DNA of 64,000 nt. Source: an uncultured Bacteroidia bacterium (GTDB lineage: Bacteria > Bacteroidota > Bacteroidia > Bacteroidales > F082). Below are positions 19,543 through 51,848 of the stretch, one piece after another. The notes under the pieces were generated by a model that was not told the DNA's origin, ran no database searches, and was given only the letters and a program-made list of their open reading frames with translations. Each line of letters begins with the position of its first letter. Position 1 is the stretch's first letter. A program made the translations under genes and the position numbers. The stretch lies in contig CADADR010000007.1 in assembly GCA_902786745.1 (NCBI GenBank), positions 80,282-144,281 of the forward strand, given 5' to 3'.

Positions 19543-19677
19543 GAGATTCCCGCAAGCGGGAATGGAGTTTGTAACCAATGTGAAAAGCGGCGGTTTGTAA
19601 AGTTGACGAATCGTAAACGTCCAAAGCCGCCGCGGTTAACAACAACATCAGCACTCCATTCCCCGCAGGGGAATCTC
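19543..19677 (+). mobile_element. structured ~135-bp palindromic MITE-like element, copy A
   Basis: Left arm GAGATTCCCGCAAGCGGGAATGGAGT and right arm ACTCCATTCCCCGCAGGGGAATCTC. Internal helix GCGGCGG (19588-19594) pairs with CCGCCGC (19627-19633). A second copy lies at 45503-45634. Confidence 0.75.
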
Positions 19678-42656: not shown

Positions 42657-42688
42657 AAAAAAAGCCTGCCAAAAACAGGCTTTTTTTG
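42657..42688 (+). terminator. rho-independent terminator after the ferredoxin gene
   Basis: Stem agcctg/caggct followed by TTTTTTT. Confidence 0.75.
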
Positions 42689-42802
42689 TATTTTTTGGCA
42701 GTTTTGAAAAGTTTGGCAAACTATTTGCTATCTTTGCAACGTTCTTTGAAAGAAAAAACACATTTAATCAATAACTCAAGTTTAACTAAACAAATTAAAA
42801 AA

Positions 42803-43612
42803 ATGAAGAAATTAGCTTTAGCACTTGTGTGCTTCGCCAGCCTTGCTTTCTTTGCAAGCTGCAACAAGGAAGGTCAACCCACCATCCAGGTCTACAACGC
42901 CGAAGATGGTTATGTCATGGCTACCGACACTGTCGACGTGAACACTGAAGTCAACTTTGGTTTCGTTGTTGCTTCCAGCCCTGTTACCAACAAAGAACTC
43001 TCCACGCTTGTGGTGAAAGTTGACGACTACGATGAGCTGACCGACACCATCAATTTGGCTGGTATGACTTCCTACACCTACAAAGGCACGCTTTCCTACA
43101 CAGCCAAAGACGAAATCGTCGGCACCTCTGTCATTACTGCTATTGTGACTGATGCCGCTGGCCAAACCGCCACTGCGTCCATCAATCTTACCATTATCCA
43201 ACCCGATCAGCCCCTCATCAGCAAGACTGTTGAATGGATCCGCAAGGGCACTAACTTCGTTGGCATCACCGAAGCTGAAATGAGAGAAATTGGATTGGAG
43301 TGGACTGGCAACTTCAGAGCCCCCATGGTCACCATTGTGCCCCTCGACGGTGCTCAACTCTATGTGTGCAGCGGCGACGACTATGCTGACATTGCTACCA
43401 TCAGCGACAAGAACGCCTACTTCACCAGCCTGCATGAAACCGGCACTGCCGTTGAGTCCTATCGTAACATCACCACCAACAACAGCGCTGACTACAACGA
43501 TATGCTGGCTGTGATTTATGGTGAAAAGCTCACTCTGGTCCGTATCAACCGCGCCGAAATCGAAACCGGCAACTACGGCACTCAAGTCACCATCAAGGGT
43601 GAAATGAAATAA
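42803..43612 (+). CDS. hypothetical lipoprotein
   Basis: ORF 42686..43612, with the start moved to ATG 42803 (MKKLALALVCFASLAFFASC lipobox). Beta-rich, and no family recognised. Confidence 0.6.
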   Translation: MKKLALALVCFASLAFFASCNKEGQPTIQVYNAEDGYVMATDTVDVNTEVNFGFVVASSPVTNKELSTLVVKVDDYDELTDTINLAGMTSYTYKGTLSYTAKDEIVGTSVITAIVTDAAGQTATASINLTIIQPDQPLISKTVEWIRKGTNFVGITEAEMREIGLEWTGNFRAPMVTIVPLDGAQLYVCSGDDYADIATISDKNAYFTSLHETGTAVESYRNITTNNSADYNDMLAVIYGEKLTLVRINRAEIETGNYGTQVTIKGEMK

Positions 43613-43627
43613 TCATCCTCACCTTAC

Positions 43628-43668
43628 AAAAAAAAGAGACGTGGTCATGACCGCGTCTCTTTTTTTTA
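43628..43668. terminator. bidirectional terminator between convergent genes
   Basis: A-run, stem agagacgtggtc/gaccgcgtctct, T-run. Confidence 0.8.
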
Positions 43669-45474
43669 TTCTGCCAAAGCGTGGCTGATCTTCCGATTGA
43701 TTTGTAGCAGCCGCTTCTCATTGAGTTTGACGACCGCCCTATCGTAAGTCATCAGGCCGTTGAGCTCAGTCTCGCAGTCGGTGGTCTGGGTGTAGACCGC
43801 TGCCGAGAAGCCTTGGAAAGCCATCTTGTAGAGCTTTTCCGCATATTCCACATAGGTGTCGGTCACCTTTTCTTCCGTGTCAAACTCCACATAGCCCCAG
43901 CCTTGGTCTTTCACCCAGGTGTGGCCTTCCACCTTACGCCCGATGCCGCCATATTCGCCGAGCACCGTGGCACGGGTCGGGTCGTAGAGCGCCATCTTCG
44001 GGTCGGGATAGTGGTGTAGGTCGAGGATGTCTCCACACTGGTAGAAGTTCCCACCTGAGGCAGGGTTTACTAAGCGTGTCGGGTCGAGTTTCTTGGTCAT
44101 CTCCACGATTTCGGGGGTCTTGAACTGTCCCCACGACTCATTGAAAGGCACCCAAACGCCGATACAAGGCACCGACTTCAGACTGTTGATGATCTCCGTC
44201 CACTCCTTCTTATAGCATTCCTCCGATTCAAGTGTACGCATACTCTCTGGGCCTTGGTAGTATTGTGTGGTCTGCCATTCGGGGCCACGGCCGCCGCTGG
44301 GCATGTCCTGCCAGACGATGATGCCGAGGCGATCGCAATGGTAGTACCAACGCGCCGGCTCCACTTTGACGTGCTTACGAATCATATTAAAGCCCAAGTC
44401 CTTGGTTTTCTGTATGTCGTAGGCCAATGCTTCGTCGGTAGGTGCGGTGTAGAGGCCATCGGGCCACCAGCCTTGGTCGAGCGGACCAAAATGGAAGACG
44501 GGAAGGCCATTGAGCGTGAGACGCACGATACCGCTTTCGTCGCGTTGCGTGCCGAAGCTTCGCATGGCAAAATAGCTGTCCACCTCATCGATTACTTTGC
44601 CCTTACGCAGCACCTTGACTTTCATGTCATACAAGAAAGGATGGTCGGGCGTCCATCGCAGGAACTCCTCGGGCATGTTCACCTCGACAGGTTGCCCGTT
44701 GATGGCCTTAGCCGATGCCACGGGCTGGCCTTCAAACGACACTTCCACCTGATAGAGGTCGTCCTTGGTCGGGTTGGAGAAGTCCACCTCCACATTGACA
44801 GTGGCCTTGTCAAAGTTGGGCGTGGTGACTAGGTTTTGGATGTAATCTTCAGGCACGTTCTCGAGCCACACCGTCTGCCAGATACCCGTCACTGCGGTGT
44901 AGAAGATGCCGTGAGGCTTGAGAACCTGTTTTCCATGAGGGATATAACTGGCGTTAGTCGGATCCCAAACACGGATGACGAGGGTGTTTTGTTTGCCTTT
45001 CAAGGCTTGGGTGATGTCGAAGGTAAAGGGAGTGTAACCACCTGTGTGCGAGCCTACTTTGATATTGTTCACCCACACATCCGTCATCCAGTCGACGGCA
45101 CCAAAATGCAGCAACACACGGCCGCCTTTCCAATTGCCCGGCACGGCAAAAGTCCTCTGGTACCACAGGGCATTGTCGGGACCTACCTCCTTCTGAACAC
45201 CCGAGAGTGCCGACTCGATGCAGAACGGCACGAGGATGTCGCCCTCATACTGTTGCGGGGCCTTCTCCCCTTTCGCCGTGATGGCATATTGCCATAGGCC
45301 GTTGAGGTTTTTCCATTCGGGTCGCACCATCATCGGGCGGGGATATTCGGGTAGGGCATTCTCTGGAGAGACTTGTTCAGCCCAACGTGTCTTGATCTTG
45401 TCGCCAGCGGGGGCATATTGGGCGACAGCGATGTTCGCTAAGAGCATTGAGATTAGTAAGAGTTTGATTTTCAT
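43666..45474 (-). CDS. glycoside hydrolase family 2 (beta-galactosidase/beta-glucuronidase-like), secreted
   Basis: Signal peptide present. GH2 sugar-binding motifs WYQRTFAVP and GGYTPFTFDIT. Catalytic region WVPFNESWGQ. Confidence 0.8.
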   Translation of the reverse strand: MKIKLLLISMLLANIAVAQYAPAGDKIKTRWAEQVSPENALPEYPRPMMVRPEWKNLNGLWQYAITAKGEKAPQQYEGDILVPFCIESALSGVQKEVGPDNALWYQRTFAVPGNWKGGRVLLHFGAVDWMTDVWVNNIKVGSHTGGYTPFTFDITQALKGKQNTLVIRVWDPTNASYIPHGKQVLKPHGIFYTAVTGIWQTVWLENVPEDYIQNLVTTPNFDKATVNVEVDFSNPTKDDLYQVEVSFEGQPVASAKAINGQPVEVNMPEEFLRWTPDHPFLYDMKVKVLRKGKVIDEVDSYFAMRSFGTQRDESGIVRLTLNGLPVFHFGPLDQGWWPDGLYTAPTDEALAYDIQKTKDLGFNMIRKHVKVEPARWYYHCDRLGIIVWQDMPSGGRGPEWQTTQYYQGPESMRTLESEECYKKEWTEIINSLKSVPCIGVWVPFNESWGQFKTPEIVEMTKKLDPTRLVNPASGGNFYQCGDILDLHHYPDPKMALYDPTRATVLGEYGGIGRKVEGHTWVKDQGWGYVEFDTEEKVTDTYVEYAEKLYKMAFQGFSAAVYTQTTDCETELNGLMTYDRAVVKLNEKRLLQINRKISHALAE

Positions 45475-45502: not shown

Positions 45503-45634
45503 GAGATTCCCTTCGGGAATGGAGTAAGATTTGTTTTGTAACCTGCGGCGGATTGTTATGTCATAGTATCGTAACCATTACTGACCGCCGCTGTCTACTT
45601 AATGACCTGTATCCATTCCCCGCAGGGGAATCTC
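45503..45634 (+). mobile_element. structured ~135-bp palindromic MITE-like element, copy B
   Basis: Left arm GAGATTCCCTTCGGGAATGGAGT and right arm TCCATTCCCCGCAGGGGAATCTC. Internal helix GCGGCGG (45545-45551) pairs with CCGCCGC (45586-45592). Same order of GTAACC and ATCGTAA blocks as copy A. Confidence 0.75.
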
Positions 45635-46037
45635 ATTCCTCCGTCATTTCCTTATTAAACGCCTCGGCGGCGGCGATGAGACTGTGGACTGCACGGGGAA
45701 TCAATTCCTCAACTTGTGGCGTGGCGTCGAGCACCTGCTCGAAGCACATCCATACCGAGGTCCCCTTGTCATGCTCATCCTCAAACTCATACAGAACGGC
45801 TTTCACCACCTTATAGTTCCAGTTGACGTTGTTGCAGGCCATGATGGCCTCGGCGAAGTTGTCGTCAGTCACATCGAACACACCTGGCAGGATGAGACGG
45901 AAAAACAACGGGTCGTCGGCATCCTCCCAAAGGAGGAAGTTCCAGCCTTCGTAGCTGAAATTCAGTCCCAGTTCGTTCTTTTTTGGAACGATACCTTGCG
46001 ACTTCAGATACCTTGACACCCAGGTCTTCGCGTTCAT
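45633..46037 (-). CDS. YbjN/type-III-chaperone-like small protein
   Basis: 134 aa. The pattern LNFSYEGWNFLLWEDADDPLFFRLILPGVF...ACNNVNWNYKVVKA resembles the YbjN family by eye. Starts 5 nt after the kinase-AAA stop. Confidence 0.55.
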   Translation of the reverse strand: MNAKTWVSRYLKSQGIVPKKNELGLNFSYEGWNFLLWEDADDPLFFRLILPGVFDVTDDNFAEAIMACNNVNWNYKVVKAVLYEFEDEHDKGTSVWMCFEQVLDATPQVEELIPRAVHSLIAAAEAFNKEMTEE

Positions 46038-46042
46038 TTCCT

Positions 46043-47785
46043 TCAGTTTTTGTTGAATCCGATGCGGGTCTTGGTGGAATAAGTCGGATTCTTGTATTTC
46101 AGCACATCGACAAGGATCTTCTGGGATATCGGGACGTTATTGTAGGCAGCCGTCATGGCGGCTTCGTTGACGGTCTCAGTGATGTCGCCAGCGTTGAAGT
46201 CATCCGACATACGGGCCAACTCGTCGAAATCAAGTTCTTCGCAGGGGCGATCCTTCAGATGGGCCATGAAGATATCCTTACGGGCCTCAAAGTCAGGCTG
46301 TGAGACGAAGAACACGCGGTCGATGCAGCCCACACGCATGATGACGGGGCTGATCAGGTCGGGACGGTTGGAAGTGGCCACGACGAGGATGCCTTTCTTG
46401 GAGCATTCGTTCATCATGCCGAACAGAGCCGAGGCCTGCGGGGTGATGGCGTTCTCCTTTTCCCCGGCATTGGGTGCGATGAACTCCAACTCATCGATAC
46501 AGATGACGAAAGGAGCCTTGATTTCGGCAGCGTCAAAGAGGCGTTGCAGGTTGTCGAGCACGCCTTCCTGATAGATGTGGCCCATCTCGGCGCCTTTGAT
46601 CAAGGAGTAGTGGAAACCAAGCTCCTCGGCAAAGCTCTGCAAGACGAGGCTCTTGCCGCATCCAGGAGGGCCATAGAGCAGGATGCCATTGATTGCCGGC
46701 AGTTTATATATCTCTGCTTTCTCGGGATTTTGCAAGGCAAACAGGACCTCCTTGCGCAGTTGTTCCTTGAGTTCGTCGCGACCCGTCACATTGTCGAAAC
46801 CACTTCCCGAGCCTTTCTTCACCGTGATGGTAGGTCCCAGATTGGGGTTTTCCTGCATGCCTTCTTCATCGGCTTTCTCGTTGTCTTCCATTAACTTGGC
46901 AAGCTCCGGCATCACCTGTTCTATCAGCGCCTGAGCAAAATCGGCGGCCGACACAAAGCGGTCGCTACGCTTCTTGGCTAGGGCCTTTTGCAGGATGGCT
47001 TTCATATAGTCGGGCAACTTCACCTGCTCCGTCTCCAAGACGAGGTCTTGTTTACGCGCTTTCTTCACGGCATCAGCAATTTTCTGCTTATCGCCATCGA
47101 GCGTACGCAGGTCGATCGACTCCCAAGGCGACTTGCCGAACAGCAGGAAATAAAGCAACGCACCCGTCGAGAAGATGTCGCTTTGCACGGTATAGACCGC
47201 GCGGAAGGTCTCAGGGGCACGGAAATAGGGCATCAGGTCCTCGTCAACGAAGGTAGGACGCCCCTTGACCATATAGGAGATATGTCCAAGGTCGATGATC
47301 GTAGGCATCAGCATACCGTCATCCAATTCTTGGAGCATAATGTTGGAGGGACGAATGTCGTTATGGATCAATGCTCTGGAATGGATAAACGAGAGGCCAC
47401 TCAACACACAGAGTGTGATTTGGACTGCGTCTTCGAGGTCGAAAGGACCGTCTTGCCTGACCGCCTCAAAGAGCGATATGCCGCGATAGTACTCGGTGAC
47501 CAGATAGTGGTAGACGTTATTGCCCTTGCGGATCTCGCCGTTGTCGACGTAACGGATGACATTCACGTCTTCGGTCGAGTTCAGTTCCTTGCAGAGCTGG
47601 ATCTCATAGACCTCCTTGCCTTCGAAAAGCTGTTCGTGCGGGATGCGTCCGAGGTCGAACACCTTCATGAAGTACATCATATCGTCGGGACCGAGCACCG
47701 TATACGACTCAGCCACAATGCCTTTCTTTATGAACGAGTTGACGACATACTTGCCAATCTTCTCTCCTTTTTTGAACATTTCCAT
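46043..47785 (-). CDS. Hanks-type Ser/Thr protein kinase fused to a classical AAA+ ATPase domain
   Basis: Kinase features: K41 (YFMKV), catalytic loop HNDIRPSN (141-148), DLG (165-167), APE (190-192) and SDIFSTGALLYFLLFG. AAA+ features: FDNVTGRDELK, Walker A GPPGCGKS (372-379), Walker B VICIDE (427-432) and TSNRPDLISPVIMRVGCIDR. Confidence 0.85.
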   Translation of the reverse strand: MEMFKKGEKIGKYVVNSFIKKGIVAESYTVLGPDDMMYFMKVFDLGRIPHEQLFEGKEVYEIQLCKELNSTEDVNVIRYVDNGEIRKGNNVYHYLVTEYYRGISLFEAVRQDGPFDLEDAVQITLCVLSGLSFIHSRALIHNDIRPSNIMLQELDDGMLMPTIIDLGHISYMVKGRPTFVDEDLMPYFRAPETFRAVYTVQSDIFSTGALLYFLLFGKSPWESIDLRTLDGDKQKIADAVKKARKQDLVLETEQVKLPDYMKAILQKALAKKRSDRFVSAADFAQALIEQVMPELAKLMEDNEKADEEGMQENPNLGPTITVKKGSGSGFDNVTGRDELKEQLRKEVLFALQNPEKAEIYKLPAINGILLYGPPGCGKSLVLQSFAEELGFHYSLIKGAEMGHIYQEGVLDNLQRLFDAAEIKAPFVICIDELEFIAPNAGEKENAITPQASALFGMMNECSKKGILVVATSNRPDLISPVIMRVGCIDRVFFVSQPDFEARKDIFMAHLKDRPCEELDFDELARMSDDFNAGDITETVNEAAMTAAYNNVPISQKILVDVLKYKNPTYSTKTRIGFNKN

Positions 47786-47852
47786 ACACTATATTTTTGT
47801 GCAAAGTTCAAGATTAAATTTGACTTGTGCAAGAGGGAGCCCTCTTTTTTCC

Positions 47853-47881
47853 ATAAAAAAAGGCCGCATGTAGCGGCCTTT
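47853..47881 (-). terminator. gyrB terminator
   Basis: Stem aaggccgc/gcggcctt with a T-run on the minus strand. Confidence 0.8.
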
Positions 47882-47904: not shown

Positions 47905-49905
<2,001 letters not shown>

Positions 49906-50093: not shown

Positions 50094-51848
50094 TCAGAAT
50101 TTCAACTTCACGCCGGCAAAGAGTTGGATGCCAGTAACAGGATAATTGTAGTAAAGCTGGTATTTTTGGTGCGCCAAATTATCAATCAACGCAAAGGCCG
50201 TGATTTGGTCATTCACCTTATAGTCGGCACCGAGACTGAGGTCGAAAACATTCTTAAGTTTTTCAGCGTAAAACCGAGGGGGATACTTCCAGTAAGGACC
50301 ATCATCCGAGACCTTGGCATAACGTCCACCTTGATAAAGCAAAGTGGTGTTAAACGCCAGCTTGTCGTTGTAATCGTAGGTCACTTTCAGTTTGGCTTCC
50401 GTCGTGGGACGATACCAGGCGTATTCCTGAATGGCAGGCGAACAGCTATGATAGGCCAGGCCAAGGTCGGCCGTGAGGCTGTTGCGCATCTTGACGCGGG
50501 CATCGGCCAAGACAGACACGGTCTTCGTTTCGTCATAAACGATCCCGTAAGTGTTATACAGTCGTGGGTATGAATAGTCGTCATGGAAAAGGTCTGACAA
50601 TTGGCCGGGACCGATATCGTCCATCACAAAAAAGGCATCATTGTCGACATGGCGATAGCGCACGCCCACGTGCAAATCAACGATTTCGGCAATGTTGGTG
50701 CGGACACCACCCTCGAAACAGAGTTTTTCGTTTCTCACCACATGAACTTCATCATGTGAAGTGATGAAGACGAAGGGGTTGTCCTCGACGATTTCGCTGA
50801 ACCGCATCAACTTGCGACCACCCTTTAGACCAGCGTAGAACTCCAGTTTCTTGTCCAAGACAAACAAGCTACCGCTAAGATCGGGACGTAGGGCAAAGTG
50901 TCTATCTTCCAACTCTTCGCCAGCGACGACATCCATCCACAGACCCAGATGCATGCGGTAGAAATCGTCTTTCATCTCAAAAAACGGATTGACTTTGAAG
51001 AAGATACGATTTTCAACATAGCCTGCCGGGGCATAACCATCGTATTGGAAGCTCACATTCACGCCAACCTTTTGAGGGCGCTCCTTAGGGCCCCACCACA
51101 TATCGGTATAACCGAGACCATAGTCCAAGCCCAAGAAGTGTTCCTTTGAGCTGAATGCATCGAAAGTGTATTGGTAATCCATGCTACCCGAATGGCTCAG
51201 TTCACCAGCACGCGTCGAAGTGGGTGCCAATCCGACATGTCCACCGATGCTATTGTAGGCCTGACGCGGGCAGTACTTTTCGATCTGTTCATCCGTCAAA
51301 GGCGTTTCAGTAAGGTTGACACCATAATAATGGTACACATCGTTTTTGTAAAACACGCCTCCGTCGACCTGGAAGCCGTCAAACTGACTCGTCGTAAGGT
51401 TGACCTCGAAGGCATTGTTCATATAGCCCGACGGTGCATAGTCCTTGATATTGAGCCACGAAGAGTGATGCTTGACGCCCACACCAAGGCCAAGTTGTTT
51501 GGTCAGCATGGAGTTATGCTTATAGAGGAAAATCGGCGAGAGCCGCGTTCCTATGCCTGCCATCACGAAGTTCTCCGTCGGGGTGACGAGTTTATCGTTT
51601 TTCGCCGCGAAAGCGGTTGGGGCTATCTTCTCGAGATCGAGGGCGAACTTCTGCGTTGCGTCCTTGGGCGTCACCTCCGAACTGGGAAATCTGTAAGAAG
51701 GCTGGGGCGTCTCAGGTTGCAGCTGCAGCTTATTGACCTTATTGACCTTAGGCCTGAACTTGCCTTCCACCGTGACTTGTTCGTCATGCTGTCCGAAAGC
51801 GGTGACGGCCATAATGGCCAGGATGATTATAGTGACAATTCTTTTCAT
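50094..51848 (-). CDS. outer-membrane beta-barrel protein, function unknown
   Basis: Signal peptide MKRIVTIIILAIMAVTAFGQ, alternating beta pattern and C-terminal ...GVKLKF. Lies 3 nt downstream of the TPR gene. Confidence 0.6.
   Translation of the reverse strand: MKRIVTIIILAIMAVTAFGQHDEQVTVEGKFRPKVNKVNKLQLQPETPQPSYRFPSSEVTPKDATQKFALDLEKIAPTAFAAKNDKLVTPTENFVMAGIGTRLSPIFLYKHNSMLTKQLGLGVGVKHHSSWLNIKDYAPSGYMNNAFEVNLTTSQFDGFQVDGGVFYKNDVYHYYGVNLTETPLTDEQIEKYCPRQAYNSIGGHVGLAPTSTRAGELSHSGSMDYQYTFDAFSSKEHFLGLDYGLGYTDMWWGPKERPQKVGVNVSFQYDGYAPAGYVENRIFFKVNPFFEMKDDFYRMHLGLWMDVVAGEELEDRHFALRPDLSGSLFVLDKKLEFYAGLKGGRKLMRFSEIVEDNPFVFITSHDEVHVVRNEKLCFEGGVRTNIAEIVDLHVGVRYRHVDNDAFFVMDDIGPGQLSDLFHDDYSYPRLYNTYGIVYDETKTVSVLADARVKMRNSLTADLGLAYHSCSPAIQEYAWYRPTTEAKLKVTYDYNDKLAFNTTLLYQGGRYAKVSDDGPYWKYPPRFYAEKLKNVFDLSLGADYKVNDQITAFALIDNLAHQKYQLYYNYPVTGIQLFAGVKLKF

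Follow-up and report, generated by a model that had tools for sequence, protein, structure and literature searches.

In Firmicutes, the McsB-ClpC-ClpP system brings together a separate arginine kinase, whose fold is unrelated to the one described below, and the two-ring Hsp100 protein ClpC, which docks onto ClpP through an internal loop. PrkA combines a Lon-like AAA domain with a C-terminal domain that is not a Hanks-type Pkinase. PrkA/YeaG are described as bacterial proteins uniting AAA+ and kinase-like domains (PMC13001217). The window analyzed here, a stretch of 64,000 nt from an uncultured Bacteroidia bacterium (contig CADADR010000007.1), carries on its reverse strand a gene for a 580-residue protein (46043..47785; 65 kDa, pI 5.0) in which Pfam Pkinase and AAA domains are fused, followed by a gene for a small acidic partner of 134 residues (45633..46037, reverse strand; 15.5 kDa, pI 4.5). 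Relative to PrkA the domain order of this fusion is reversed, and neither its Pfam matches nor the 25 NCBIfam families listed for it include the PrkA family. The likeness to McsB-ClpC-ClpP is one of functional analogy only, i.e., a kinase that works together with an AAA+ unfoldase, and perhaps with ClpP, by means of phosphorylation that would mark or gate clients. An earlier note on this DNA, made from its letters alone, knew of no characterized bacterial fusion of a kinase to a classical AAA+ ATPase, and we likewise found no published characterization: full-text literature searches, which did not cover a Ter/TerB-system paper in which a prior mention is possible, gave no description of the kinase::AAA fusion, of the Hsp70/TerB operon that accompanies some of its relatives, or of their “CFI-box” proteins, and early bacterial kinome surveys make no mention of an AAA partner. 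The architecture combines known kinds of parts, namely, a Hanks-type kinase fold, a classical AAA+ unfoldase, and an adaptor of type III secretion (T3S) chaperone fold, in an uncharacterized arrangement that is widespread in gut Bacteroidales. The explanation that we prefer, although we would put it slightly below an even chance, is an adaptor-assisted AAA+ remodeler or unfoldase with a kinase-fold N-domain, whose kinase is probably active in this lineage and would gate or mark the remodeling step.

The two halves of the fusion

Conservation was read from two sets of sequences. A scan of one genome per GTDB species returned 54 full-length fusion loci and one fragment, and these 54 together with the window make up what we call the own clade (55 sequences); the columns of the wider family were taken from 66 representatives, mostly 27-39% identical to the window fusion. 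The C-terminal half of the fusion (aa 329-565; 46091..46801, reverse strand) is a single classical-clade AAA+ module with a lid, as judged from Pfam, alignment to Cdc48, and Foldseek. It passes Pfam AAA (PF00004) with 81.5 bits against a cut-off of 21.2 (E = 9.9e-23, aa 368-495), the match to AAA_lid_3 being below threshold, and contains Walker A GPPGCGKS (K378-S379), Walker B D431-E432, the sensor-1 residue N473, and the Arg finger R484. Its best solved relatives are p97/Cdc48, VAT, and AFG2 (phmmer E values down to 1.6e-63), and it can be aligned to both rings of Cdc48/p97, best to D2. An AlphaFold model of the fusion built from 65 sequences (predicted local distance difference test [pLDDT], 84.9) has two folded domains connected by a stretch without order (aa 302-316), and in Foldseek its AAA module matches p97 D2, PAN, and FtsH-type structures, with a root mean square deviation of about 3.5 Å over roughly 250-270 aligned columns for p97 D2 and PAN.

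The module thus shares with Cdc48/p97/VAT (D2 ring), PAN/Rpt, and FtsH the Walker A and B motifs, the sensor-1 Asn, the Arg finger of the second region of homology (SRH), an aromatic residue in pore loop 1, and a helical lid. Unlike Cdc48, however, the fusion has one AAA ring; its N-domain is a kinase fold rather than a double-psi barrel or a coiled-coil/OB domain; and unlike FtsH, it has neither a transmembrane (TM) segment (maximum Kyte-Doolittle 19-residue mean, 1.47) nor an M41 protease domain. CDC48, FtsH, and PAN also rank at the top in NCBIfam, yet all three scores fall far under the curated cut-offs (CDC48 TIGR01243, 129.5 versus 802.65; FtsH TIGR01241, 112.5 versus 600; PAN TIGR01242, 106.6 versus 500), and with its single AAA module and its lack of TM and protease domains the fusion was not assigned to any of these families. 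Further departures from classical AAA+ unfoldases concern the motor itself and a C-terminal tail of IGF type rather than HbYX. In the SRH motif RxGR, R484 is present but the second Arg is Cys487 in 55/55 own-clade sequences, against Arg in 63/66 family representatives, while pore loop 1 reads I-Y405-Q-E, against M-W-Y-G in Cdc48 D2, where W561 aligns with Y405, and against a family consensus of Y-[VI]-H. Both Y405 and R484 are invariant in the own clade (55/55).

The N-terminal half (aa 1-295; 46901..47785, reverse strand) is an atypical Hanks-type kinase domain according to Pfam, PDB alignments, and the family columns. It scores 106.4 bits with Pfam Pkinase (PF00069) against a cut-off of 31.7 (E = 2.1e-30, aa 24-278) and aligns best to calcium-dependent protein kinases (CDPKs) and PknB in the PDB (E values of 1e-21 to 1e-15). 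Like PknB/Stk1 and CDPK-like kinases, it has the full eukaryotic protein kinase fold, with the beta3 Lys (K41), the alphaC Glu (E61), the catalytic Asp and Asn (H141-N-D143 and N148), the DxG Asp (D165-L-G), APE at 190-192, the subdomain IX Asp (D203), and the subdomain XI Arg (R276). Unlike PknB/Stk1, it lacks the Gly-rich loop GxGxxG, the corresponding stretch being IKKGIVAESY with a single Gly (family consensus, IKxGxYAETYRV), and it has the non-RD form HND: in the catalytic loop H-N-D-I-R-P-S-N, Asn stands for the Arg of HRD and Arg145 for the catalytic-loop Lys (HRDLKxxN). The latter position is occupied in relatives by T, C, or N, and never by K, with Thr in most of them. It also differs from PknB/Stk1 in being joined to an AAA+ motor and in having no TM, PASTA, or other sensor domain, and from Hanks-type kinases at large in that its catalytic residues decay in a sister clade, described below. 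In the own clade, all kinase catalytic residues are invariant (55/55), among them K41, E61, D143, N148, D165, and A190-P-E192, and R145 is kept in 49/55; the kinase is predicted to be probably still active there. The two halves are separated by an acidic, poorly conserved, disordered linker (aa 296-328; 46802..46900, reverse strand), with a pLDDT of <50 for aa 302-316 and a column conservation of 0.52 for aa 301-320.

Much of what the earlier note had read from the letters is upheld by these results. Both ORFs of the pair have the boundaries it predicted; the motifs it named are all in place in the kinase half (K41, HNDIRPSN with D143 and N148, DLG 165-167, and APE 190-192) as well as in the AAA half (GPPGCGKS, VICIDE, TSN, and RVGCIDR); the Pkinase and AAA calls hold in the Pfam searches, and the resemblance to CDC48- and FtsH-type unfoldases is backed by the PDB and Foldseek matches. 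The Kyte-Doolittle scan agrees with its statement that no TM segment is present, and after alignment the kinase domain of the own clade has both the ATP-binding Lys (K41) and the catalytic Asp (D143). Its description of the motifs as “textbook” went too far, however, since the kinase is atypical without a Gly-rich loop, with HND for HRD, and with Arg145 for Lys, and since the AAA module has Cys487 as its second SRH residue and, in pore loop 1, Y405 followed by Q-E where aromatic-hydrophobic-Gly would be usual.

The wider family, its partners, and the C-terminal tail

When 1.8 billion representatives were searched exhaustively with HMMER, dozens of relatives proved to be full length (560-630 aa, 28-49% identical), and a profile search returned 1,440 clusters (90% identity) at E ≤ 1e-30, which places the family at no fewer than 1,400 clusters, one of which comprises 2,292 gut-metagenome sequences. 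These proteins are named “AAA family ATPase” at NCBI (e.g., in Prevotella sp.) and “transitional endoplasmic reticulum ATPase” at JGI/IMG; both names hide the kinase domain, and the second is misleading for a bacterial single-ring protein. Across the 66 representatives, the AAA half is better conserved than the kinase half. The Walker A Lys is present in 66, the Walker B Asp and Glu in 66 and 65, the sensor-1 Asn in 65, and R484 in 64, with an aromatic residue in the pore loop (S-x-[YFW]-[VI]-H) of 60. By comparison, no more than 28 still have the catalytic Asp, which is N in 15 and E in 11; the DFG Asp is found in 41 and the catalytic-loop Lys in none, although K41 (61), the alphaC Glu (59), and H141, E192, D203, and R276 (at least 62 each) are widely retained. 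We read the AAA motor and the tail as the constant core of the family and the kinase fold as a conserved scaffold. Because the catalytic Asp is present in 28/66 and the catalytic-loop Lys in 0/66, phosphotransfer cannot be what is central to the family.

For 80 metagenomic loci, the neighboring ORFs were clustered and a neighbor-joining tree was built; the clustering and the tree separate the family into two clades. Clade A, which includes the window gene and Prevotella, is a two-gene module in which the partner belongs to the family of the 134-residue protein. Such a partner was found beside the fusion by jackhmmer and hmmsearch in ~17 loci, several partners matching Pfam YbjN and in some cases TY-Chap1, and the clade keeps K-E-H-N-D-T-N-D at the kinase catalytic positions. 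Clade B has a five-gene order, i.e., a protein of ~558 aa, a coiled-coil protein of ~311 aa, a protein of ~832 aa with an Hsp70 nucleotide-binding domain and a C-terminal half without match, the fusion, and a protein of ~167 aa, as in L140:2887-10249 and L142:3790-11315 (Haliscomenobacter hydrossis pHALHY02). In RefSeq, the genes of the pHALHY02 operon are named CFI-box-CTERM, septum formation initiator, Hsp70 family protein, AAA family ATPase, and TerB family protein. Among clade-B loci, Hsp70 is present in 47 and the 167-aa cluster lies downstream in 36; Pfam TerB was found in 20/58 downstream ORFs scanned. PADLOC 2.0 gave no significant match for the four nonfusion proteins of the clade-B operon, and we know of no described system with this composition. 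The kinases of clade B are mostly H-N-E and several lack K41, the catalytic Asp, and the DFG Asp, but even clearly dead kinases retain a perfect AAA module and the IGF tail. Since many clade-B kinases are dead as catalysts, what the family would have in common is a kinase fold that binds or senses, not phosphotransfer. A third arrangement (L063:9706-15951; L064:5499-11720) consists of the fusion followed by a stand-alone Pkinase protein of ~429 aa and further genes; after the Pkinase gene come two unknown proteins of ~257 and ~454 aa, an Hsp70-like protein of ~735 aa, and a ~184-aa protein.

The fusion ends in a flexible tail (46046..46090, reverse strand) with the residues T-R-I-G-F-N-K-N, recognized as a family motif and modeled with a mean pLDDT of 56 over the last 10 residues. 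The tripeptide IGF occupies aa 575-577 (nt 46055-46063), and [RK]-x-[IV]-G-[FYW] is found 0-8 residues from the C terminus in 121/144 family sequences, a count over two sets that possibly overlap. G576 is near-invariant (sets A2 and A4). In nearly every family member this tail is preceded by a variable low-complexity stretch, and it occurs in both clades, dead-kinase members included, independently of the partner type. The ClpP-docking motif of ClpX and ClpA is [LIV]-G-[FL] and is located on an internal loop; we take the IGF of the fusion to resemble this tripeptide, although it sits on a C-terminal tail and not on an internal loop. In 3 of ~77 loci, from two sub-branches of clade A, the next gene downstream of the fusion encodes a ClpP of canonical appearance (L069:9763-10437; L073:8480-9100; L083:9729-10400). 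In the first two of these loci a YbjN-like gene is instead found upstream of the fusion, and the opposite strand carries an Hsp90 gene farther on. Every partner in the family is chaperone-like, adaptor-like, or proteolytic (YbjN fold, TerB, Hsp70-like, and ClpP).

The partner in the window had been called YbjN-like in the earlier note, with the fold of T3S chaperones, and this holds through its relatives and its predicted fold. The 134-aa protein itself is under the Pfam YbjN (PF10722) cut-off (14 bits, E = 0.06, versus 22), whereas the clade-A partner of locus L059 passes it with 33.2 bits. Among 58 downstream ORFs scanned with Pfam, YbjN was found in 8 and TY-Chap1 (PF22551) in 4, the best of these just under its cut-off, and precomputed YbjN assignments also exist for relatives of the clade-A partner. 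An AF2 model (pLDDT, 63) has the a-bbb-a-bb-a order of class I T3S chaperones, and its top Foldseek matches are YbjN of E. coli (6vu7; probability 0.99, TM score about 0.5), SycE, CesT, Spa15, and AmyR. The partner is thus predicted to share its topology, its length of ~130 aa, and its acidic character with YbjN/AmyR/DR1245 and with SycE, CesT, and Spa15. Unlike the YbjN family, it is under the Pfam cut-off and has no sequence-level match to a solved structure, the profile of the partner family giving only spurious coiled-coil or designed-protein matches; unlike T3S chaperones, it is tied to an AAA+ ATPase and not to a secretion ATPase. To our knowledge, Bacteroidales have no T3S system. Homologues similar to the partner appear confined to this lineage and close relatives (516 matches).

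Conservation of the pair and competing explanations

The fusion is intact in 54/54 full-length related loci (69-100% identical to the window protein), the close relatives being labeled Bacteroidales or Candidatus Limimorpha, and in this gene the window matches a contig of the rumen MAG “bacterium F082” at 100% identity. A small ORF follows immediately, 2-14 nt past the fusion stop, in 53/53 loci whose contig reaches that far. The gyrB gene lies upstream wherever the contig reaches; it is adjacent in most loci, and 1-6 kb are inserted in about a dozen. A GH2 gene is found downstream of the pair in most of them. A strain-specific gene-fusion artifact is ruled out by these 54 genomes and by hundreds of distant clusters, and the adjacency of the small ORF extends to distant relatives at 30-40% identity; on both points, which the earlier note had left to be checked, the fusion and its pairing prove genuine. 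The ratio of nonsynonymous to synonymous substitution rates (dN/dS), calculated according to Nei and Gojobori over 40 orthologue sets in which synonymous sites are saturated (dS of 0.9-1.6), is 0.027 for gyrB, 0.040 for the GH2 gene, 0.042 for the AAA module, 0.064 for the kinase, 0.11 for the partner, and 0.23 for the linker. With values of 0.04-0.11 for the folded parts, the fusion and partner genes are both under ordinary purifying selection, and these sets gave no signal of diversifying selection or of an arms race. Divergence within the module is discordant in some loci: L046 and L047 are 99.5% identical to the window in gyrB and 90-92% in the partner, but 76% in the kinase domain and 85% in the AAA module, and L009 and L027 are ~86% identical in the fusion but only 67% in the partner. 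This discordance suggests recombination or allele exchange inside the module.

What is observed, then, is a protein of two domains with intact ATPase motifs and an aromatic pore-loop residue, a conserved partner gene, and a C-terminal IGF tail that is likewise conserved. These features are best explained if the kinase fold replaces the usual N-terminal client-recognition domain of a single-ring Cdc48-D2/PAN/FtsH-type unfoldase. In the mechanism that we propose, the ATPase would form a hexamer with six kinase domains crowning its pore, and the acidic protein of T3S-chaperone/YbjN fold would act as an adaptor or holder presenting the client, or would regulate access to the pore. ATP hydrolysis would draw the client through the pore via Y405, and the flexible [R/K]-x-IGF tail is predicted to dock the ring onto a partner, with ClpP as the best candidate. 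Because K41, E61, D143, N148, and D165 are strictly kept, phosphorylation of the kinase itself, the partner, or the client probably gates or marks the remodeling step in clade A. An unfoldase with a chaperone-like adaptor had also been proposed in the earlier note and remains the best reading, but the phosphorylation coupled to it there does not extend to the family as a whole, given a catalytic Asp in only 28 of 66 representatives.

Several observations weigh against this proposal. With no Gly-rich loop and no catalytic-loop Lys, the kinase half may not transfer phosphate at all. Two features of the motor that hardly vary across the family are altered in the own clade, and since Cys487 is found in 55/55 sequences together with a Y-Q-E pore loop, its motor may be slow or repurposed. 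Two of the three ClpP-linked loci have a variant tail (…VQGL or …VQSL), and their pore loop has Leu instead of Tyr; the link to ClpP, made up of a tripeptide resemblance and 3 of ~77 loci, is a lead and not a demonstration. The model of the partner is of low confidence, and its family profile led to no solved relative. The assembly of a hexamer, the threading of a client, the binding of the partner, and the docking to ClpP are inferences in every case.

The purifying selection on the kinase domain, the invariance of K41, E61, D143, N148, D165, and APE in 55 sequences and their retention throughout clade A, together with an own-clade ATPase that has lost one SRH arginine and the hydrophobic residue of the pore loop, would also suit a protein that is mainly a Ser/Thr signaling kinase, in which the AAA module serves only for oligomerization or conformational regulation, nothing is unfolded, and the small protein is a substrate, an inhibitor, or a component of a partner switch. 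We consider this unlikely, for the ATPase and pore-loop motifs are far better kept across the family than the kinase catalytic residues, clearly dead kinases come with a perfect AAA module and IGF tail, protein remodeling is suggested by the association of the genes with Hsp70, ClpP, and partners of chaperone fold, and no PP2C-type phosphatase is among the top 25 of the 58 Pfam families of the window ORFs. Conversely, the kinase fold might bind nucleotide or client without phosphorylating even in the own clade, as a pseudokinase scaffold that serves as the N-domain of an unfoldase. The missing Gly-rich loop, HND for HRD, and the absence of the catalytic-loop Lys family-wide (T, C, or N; Arg here) fit such a scaffold, as does the loss of the catalytic Asp in more than half of the family representatives, some of which also lack K41 and D165. 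It is nonetheless improbable in the own clade, where D143, N148, D165, K41, and E61 are strictly invariant despite a saturated dS of about 1.4 and are kept across clade A, an invariance that is hard to explain other than by catalysis or precise Mg-ATP binding.

The earlier note had also raised an abortive-infection effector in which the ATPase senses and the kinase executes; as considered here, the ATPase or the chaperone-like partner would sense a phage product and the kinase or the unfoldase would bring about growth arrest. Domain matches lend some color to this idea, since in PADLOC the kinase half matches the defense models mad6 (7e-37) and PD-T4-6 (3e-31) and the AAA half IetA (3e-17), and so do the clade-B operon on H. 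hydrossis pHALHY02, which abuts a BREX cluster (brxL and pglZ), and a swapping of partners (YbjN, TerB, ClpP, and Hsp70) that is typical of conflict systems. TY-Chap1 domains, moreover, were first defined in predicted anti-viral ADP-ribose-linked systems, which is a different context (PMC9503650). The PADLOC matches to mad6, PD-T4-6, IetA, and MkoA were, however, taken as generic domain matches and not as family identity, because the NCBIfam curated cut-offs are missed 5- to 10-fold (MAD6, 82.9 bits versus 460; IteA, 52.4 versus 510). The likeness to IetA/IetS, PD-T4-6, and MADS MAD6 is at the domain level only: the locus has no IetS protease or MADS partner, its architecture is another, and its genomic behavior is not defense-like. 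Known anti-phage systems (MADS MAD6, PD-T4-6, and Iet) were rejected on the curated scores, the lack of partner genes, and the core-genome position of the locus. When 66 clade-A neighbors were scanned with Pfam and PADLOC and 91 clade-B neighbors with Pfam, housekeeping genes made up most of both sets, AbiE or AbiG matches being sporadic, and the Haliscomenobacter plasmid locus was the only one to abut BREX. By tblastn, 50,697 phage records gave no copy of full length and 72,556 plasmids gave one; among 2.9 million viral contigs of IMG/VR there were two. This near-absence from phages and plasmids, the low dN/dS without diversifying selection, and the position of the pair downstream of gyrB in every related locus that reaches it, adjacent in most, disfavor a conflict system, which we regard as quite unlikely; an abortive-infection role at this locus is poorly supported. 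The behavior of the pair in the rumen Bacteroidales studied here is that of a chromosomal gene with a stable position and a housekeeping or regulatory character, not that of a mobile defense module.

The locus in the window and the meaning of the family

In the window, the stop codon of the fusion and the start codon of the partner are separated by 5 nt (TGA-AGGAA-ATG), and the two genes are probably translationally coupled. The gyrB gene upstream (47905-49905) was identified by Pfam DNA_gyraseB, Toprim, and HATPase_c, and is followed at about 47855..47879 (reverse strand) by an intrinsic terminator, i.e., the hairpin AGGCCGC-TACAT-GCGGCCT and the run TTTTTT. This terminator, noticed earlier, is visible in the sequence but was not listed by a consensus terminator scan. 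The pair has a promoter-like region of its own (47802..47832, reverse strand), composed of a -33-like TTG, a 20-nt spacer, and the -7-like element GAACTTTG, which ends 17 nt before the fusion ATG. Most of the 54 related loci keep the motif cTTGc-N20-GA[AC]CTTTG ahead of the fusion gene, its -7-like part reading TGA[AC]CTTTGC. Bacteroidetes promoters have a -33/-7 pattern with the -7 consensus TAnnTTTG, and the conserved motif presumably functions as a promoter of this pattern. In five loci (L016, L039, L043, L050, and L051), the fusion starts 11-16 nt past the gyrB stop with neither terminator nor promoter-like element, so that it is probably cotranscribed with gyrB there; in L041, the gyrB stop lies ~30 nt upstream of the fusion and the -7-like element TACCTTTG is retained. 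A second G+C-rich hairpin, AAGAGGG-AGCC-CCTCTT, is located at 47831-47846, between the gyrB terminator and the promoter-like motif, with its 3′ arm overlapping the -33-like TTG; since an A-run and a T-run border it on either side, it might terminate transcription in both directions.

On the other side, between the partner gene and the GH2 glycosidase gene (43666-45474), lies an element of ~130 bp (45505..45632, no strand assigned) that resembles a miniature inverted-repeat transposable element (MITE) or a repetitive extragenic palindrome and has hairpin-forming terminal inverted repeats. As the earlier note had it, this MITE-like element is real: a second copy, alignable at both ends, occurs at 19545-19675, and the terminal-repeat pattern has 4 occurrences in the window, where 0 would be expected. 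The element has GAGATTCCC..GGGAATGGAGT and TCCATTCCCCGCAGGGGAATCTC as its hairpin-forming ends, and inside it GCGGCGG/CCGCCGC forms a further inverted repeat. The copy after the partner gene seems absent from the genome of locus L002 (99% identical), whose spacer is ~108 nt shorter there; the element does not belong to the pair functionally. Elsewhere in the window are genes for core functions, among them LpxC, LpxK, a 2-oxoacid:ferredoxin oxidoreductase, and radical-SAM enzymes. Two further ORFs of the window have no Pfam match at E ≤ 1e-5, namely, 42686-43612(+) (308 aa, lipoprotein-like N terminus) and 50094-51848(-) (584 aa, signal-peptide-like N terminus).

Two features of the family had gone unnoticed in the earlier note, the conserved C-terminal IGF tail and the sister five-gene operon with Hsp70 and TerB, and together with the swapping of partners among YbjN, TerB, Hsp70, and ClpP the tail yields concrete, testable hypotheses. 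The boldest of them, which we hold to be rather improbable, is a degradation or remodeling machine in which a kinase crown would write or read a phospho-mark on clients, the adaptor, T3S-chaperone-like or TerB/Hsp70, would deliver them, a single Cdc48-like ring would unfold them, and the IGF tail would plug this ring into ClpP. By analogy, and with the same strong reservation, such a machine might be the one-polypeptide equivalent of McsB-ClpC-ClpP and might be common among gut Bacteroidales, Prevotella among them. Few protein machines have been studied as well as kinases and AAA+ unfoldases, yet no characterized union of a Hanks-type kinase with a classical AAA+ ring was found, and dominant Bacteroidales of the rumen and the human gut carry the family. 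The series that leads from intact kinases in clade A to HNE and fully dead kinases in clade B, with the motor unchanged, would offer a natural system for the transition from a kinase to a pseudokinase adaptor. If the kinase does mark or gate clients for unfolding or degradation, the fusion would represent a new route of regulated proteolysis in Bacteroidota.

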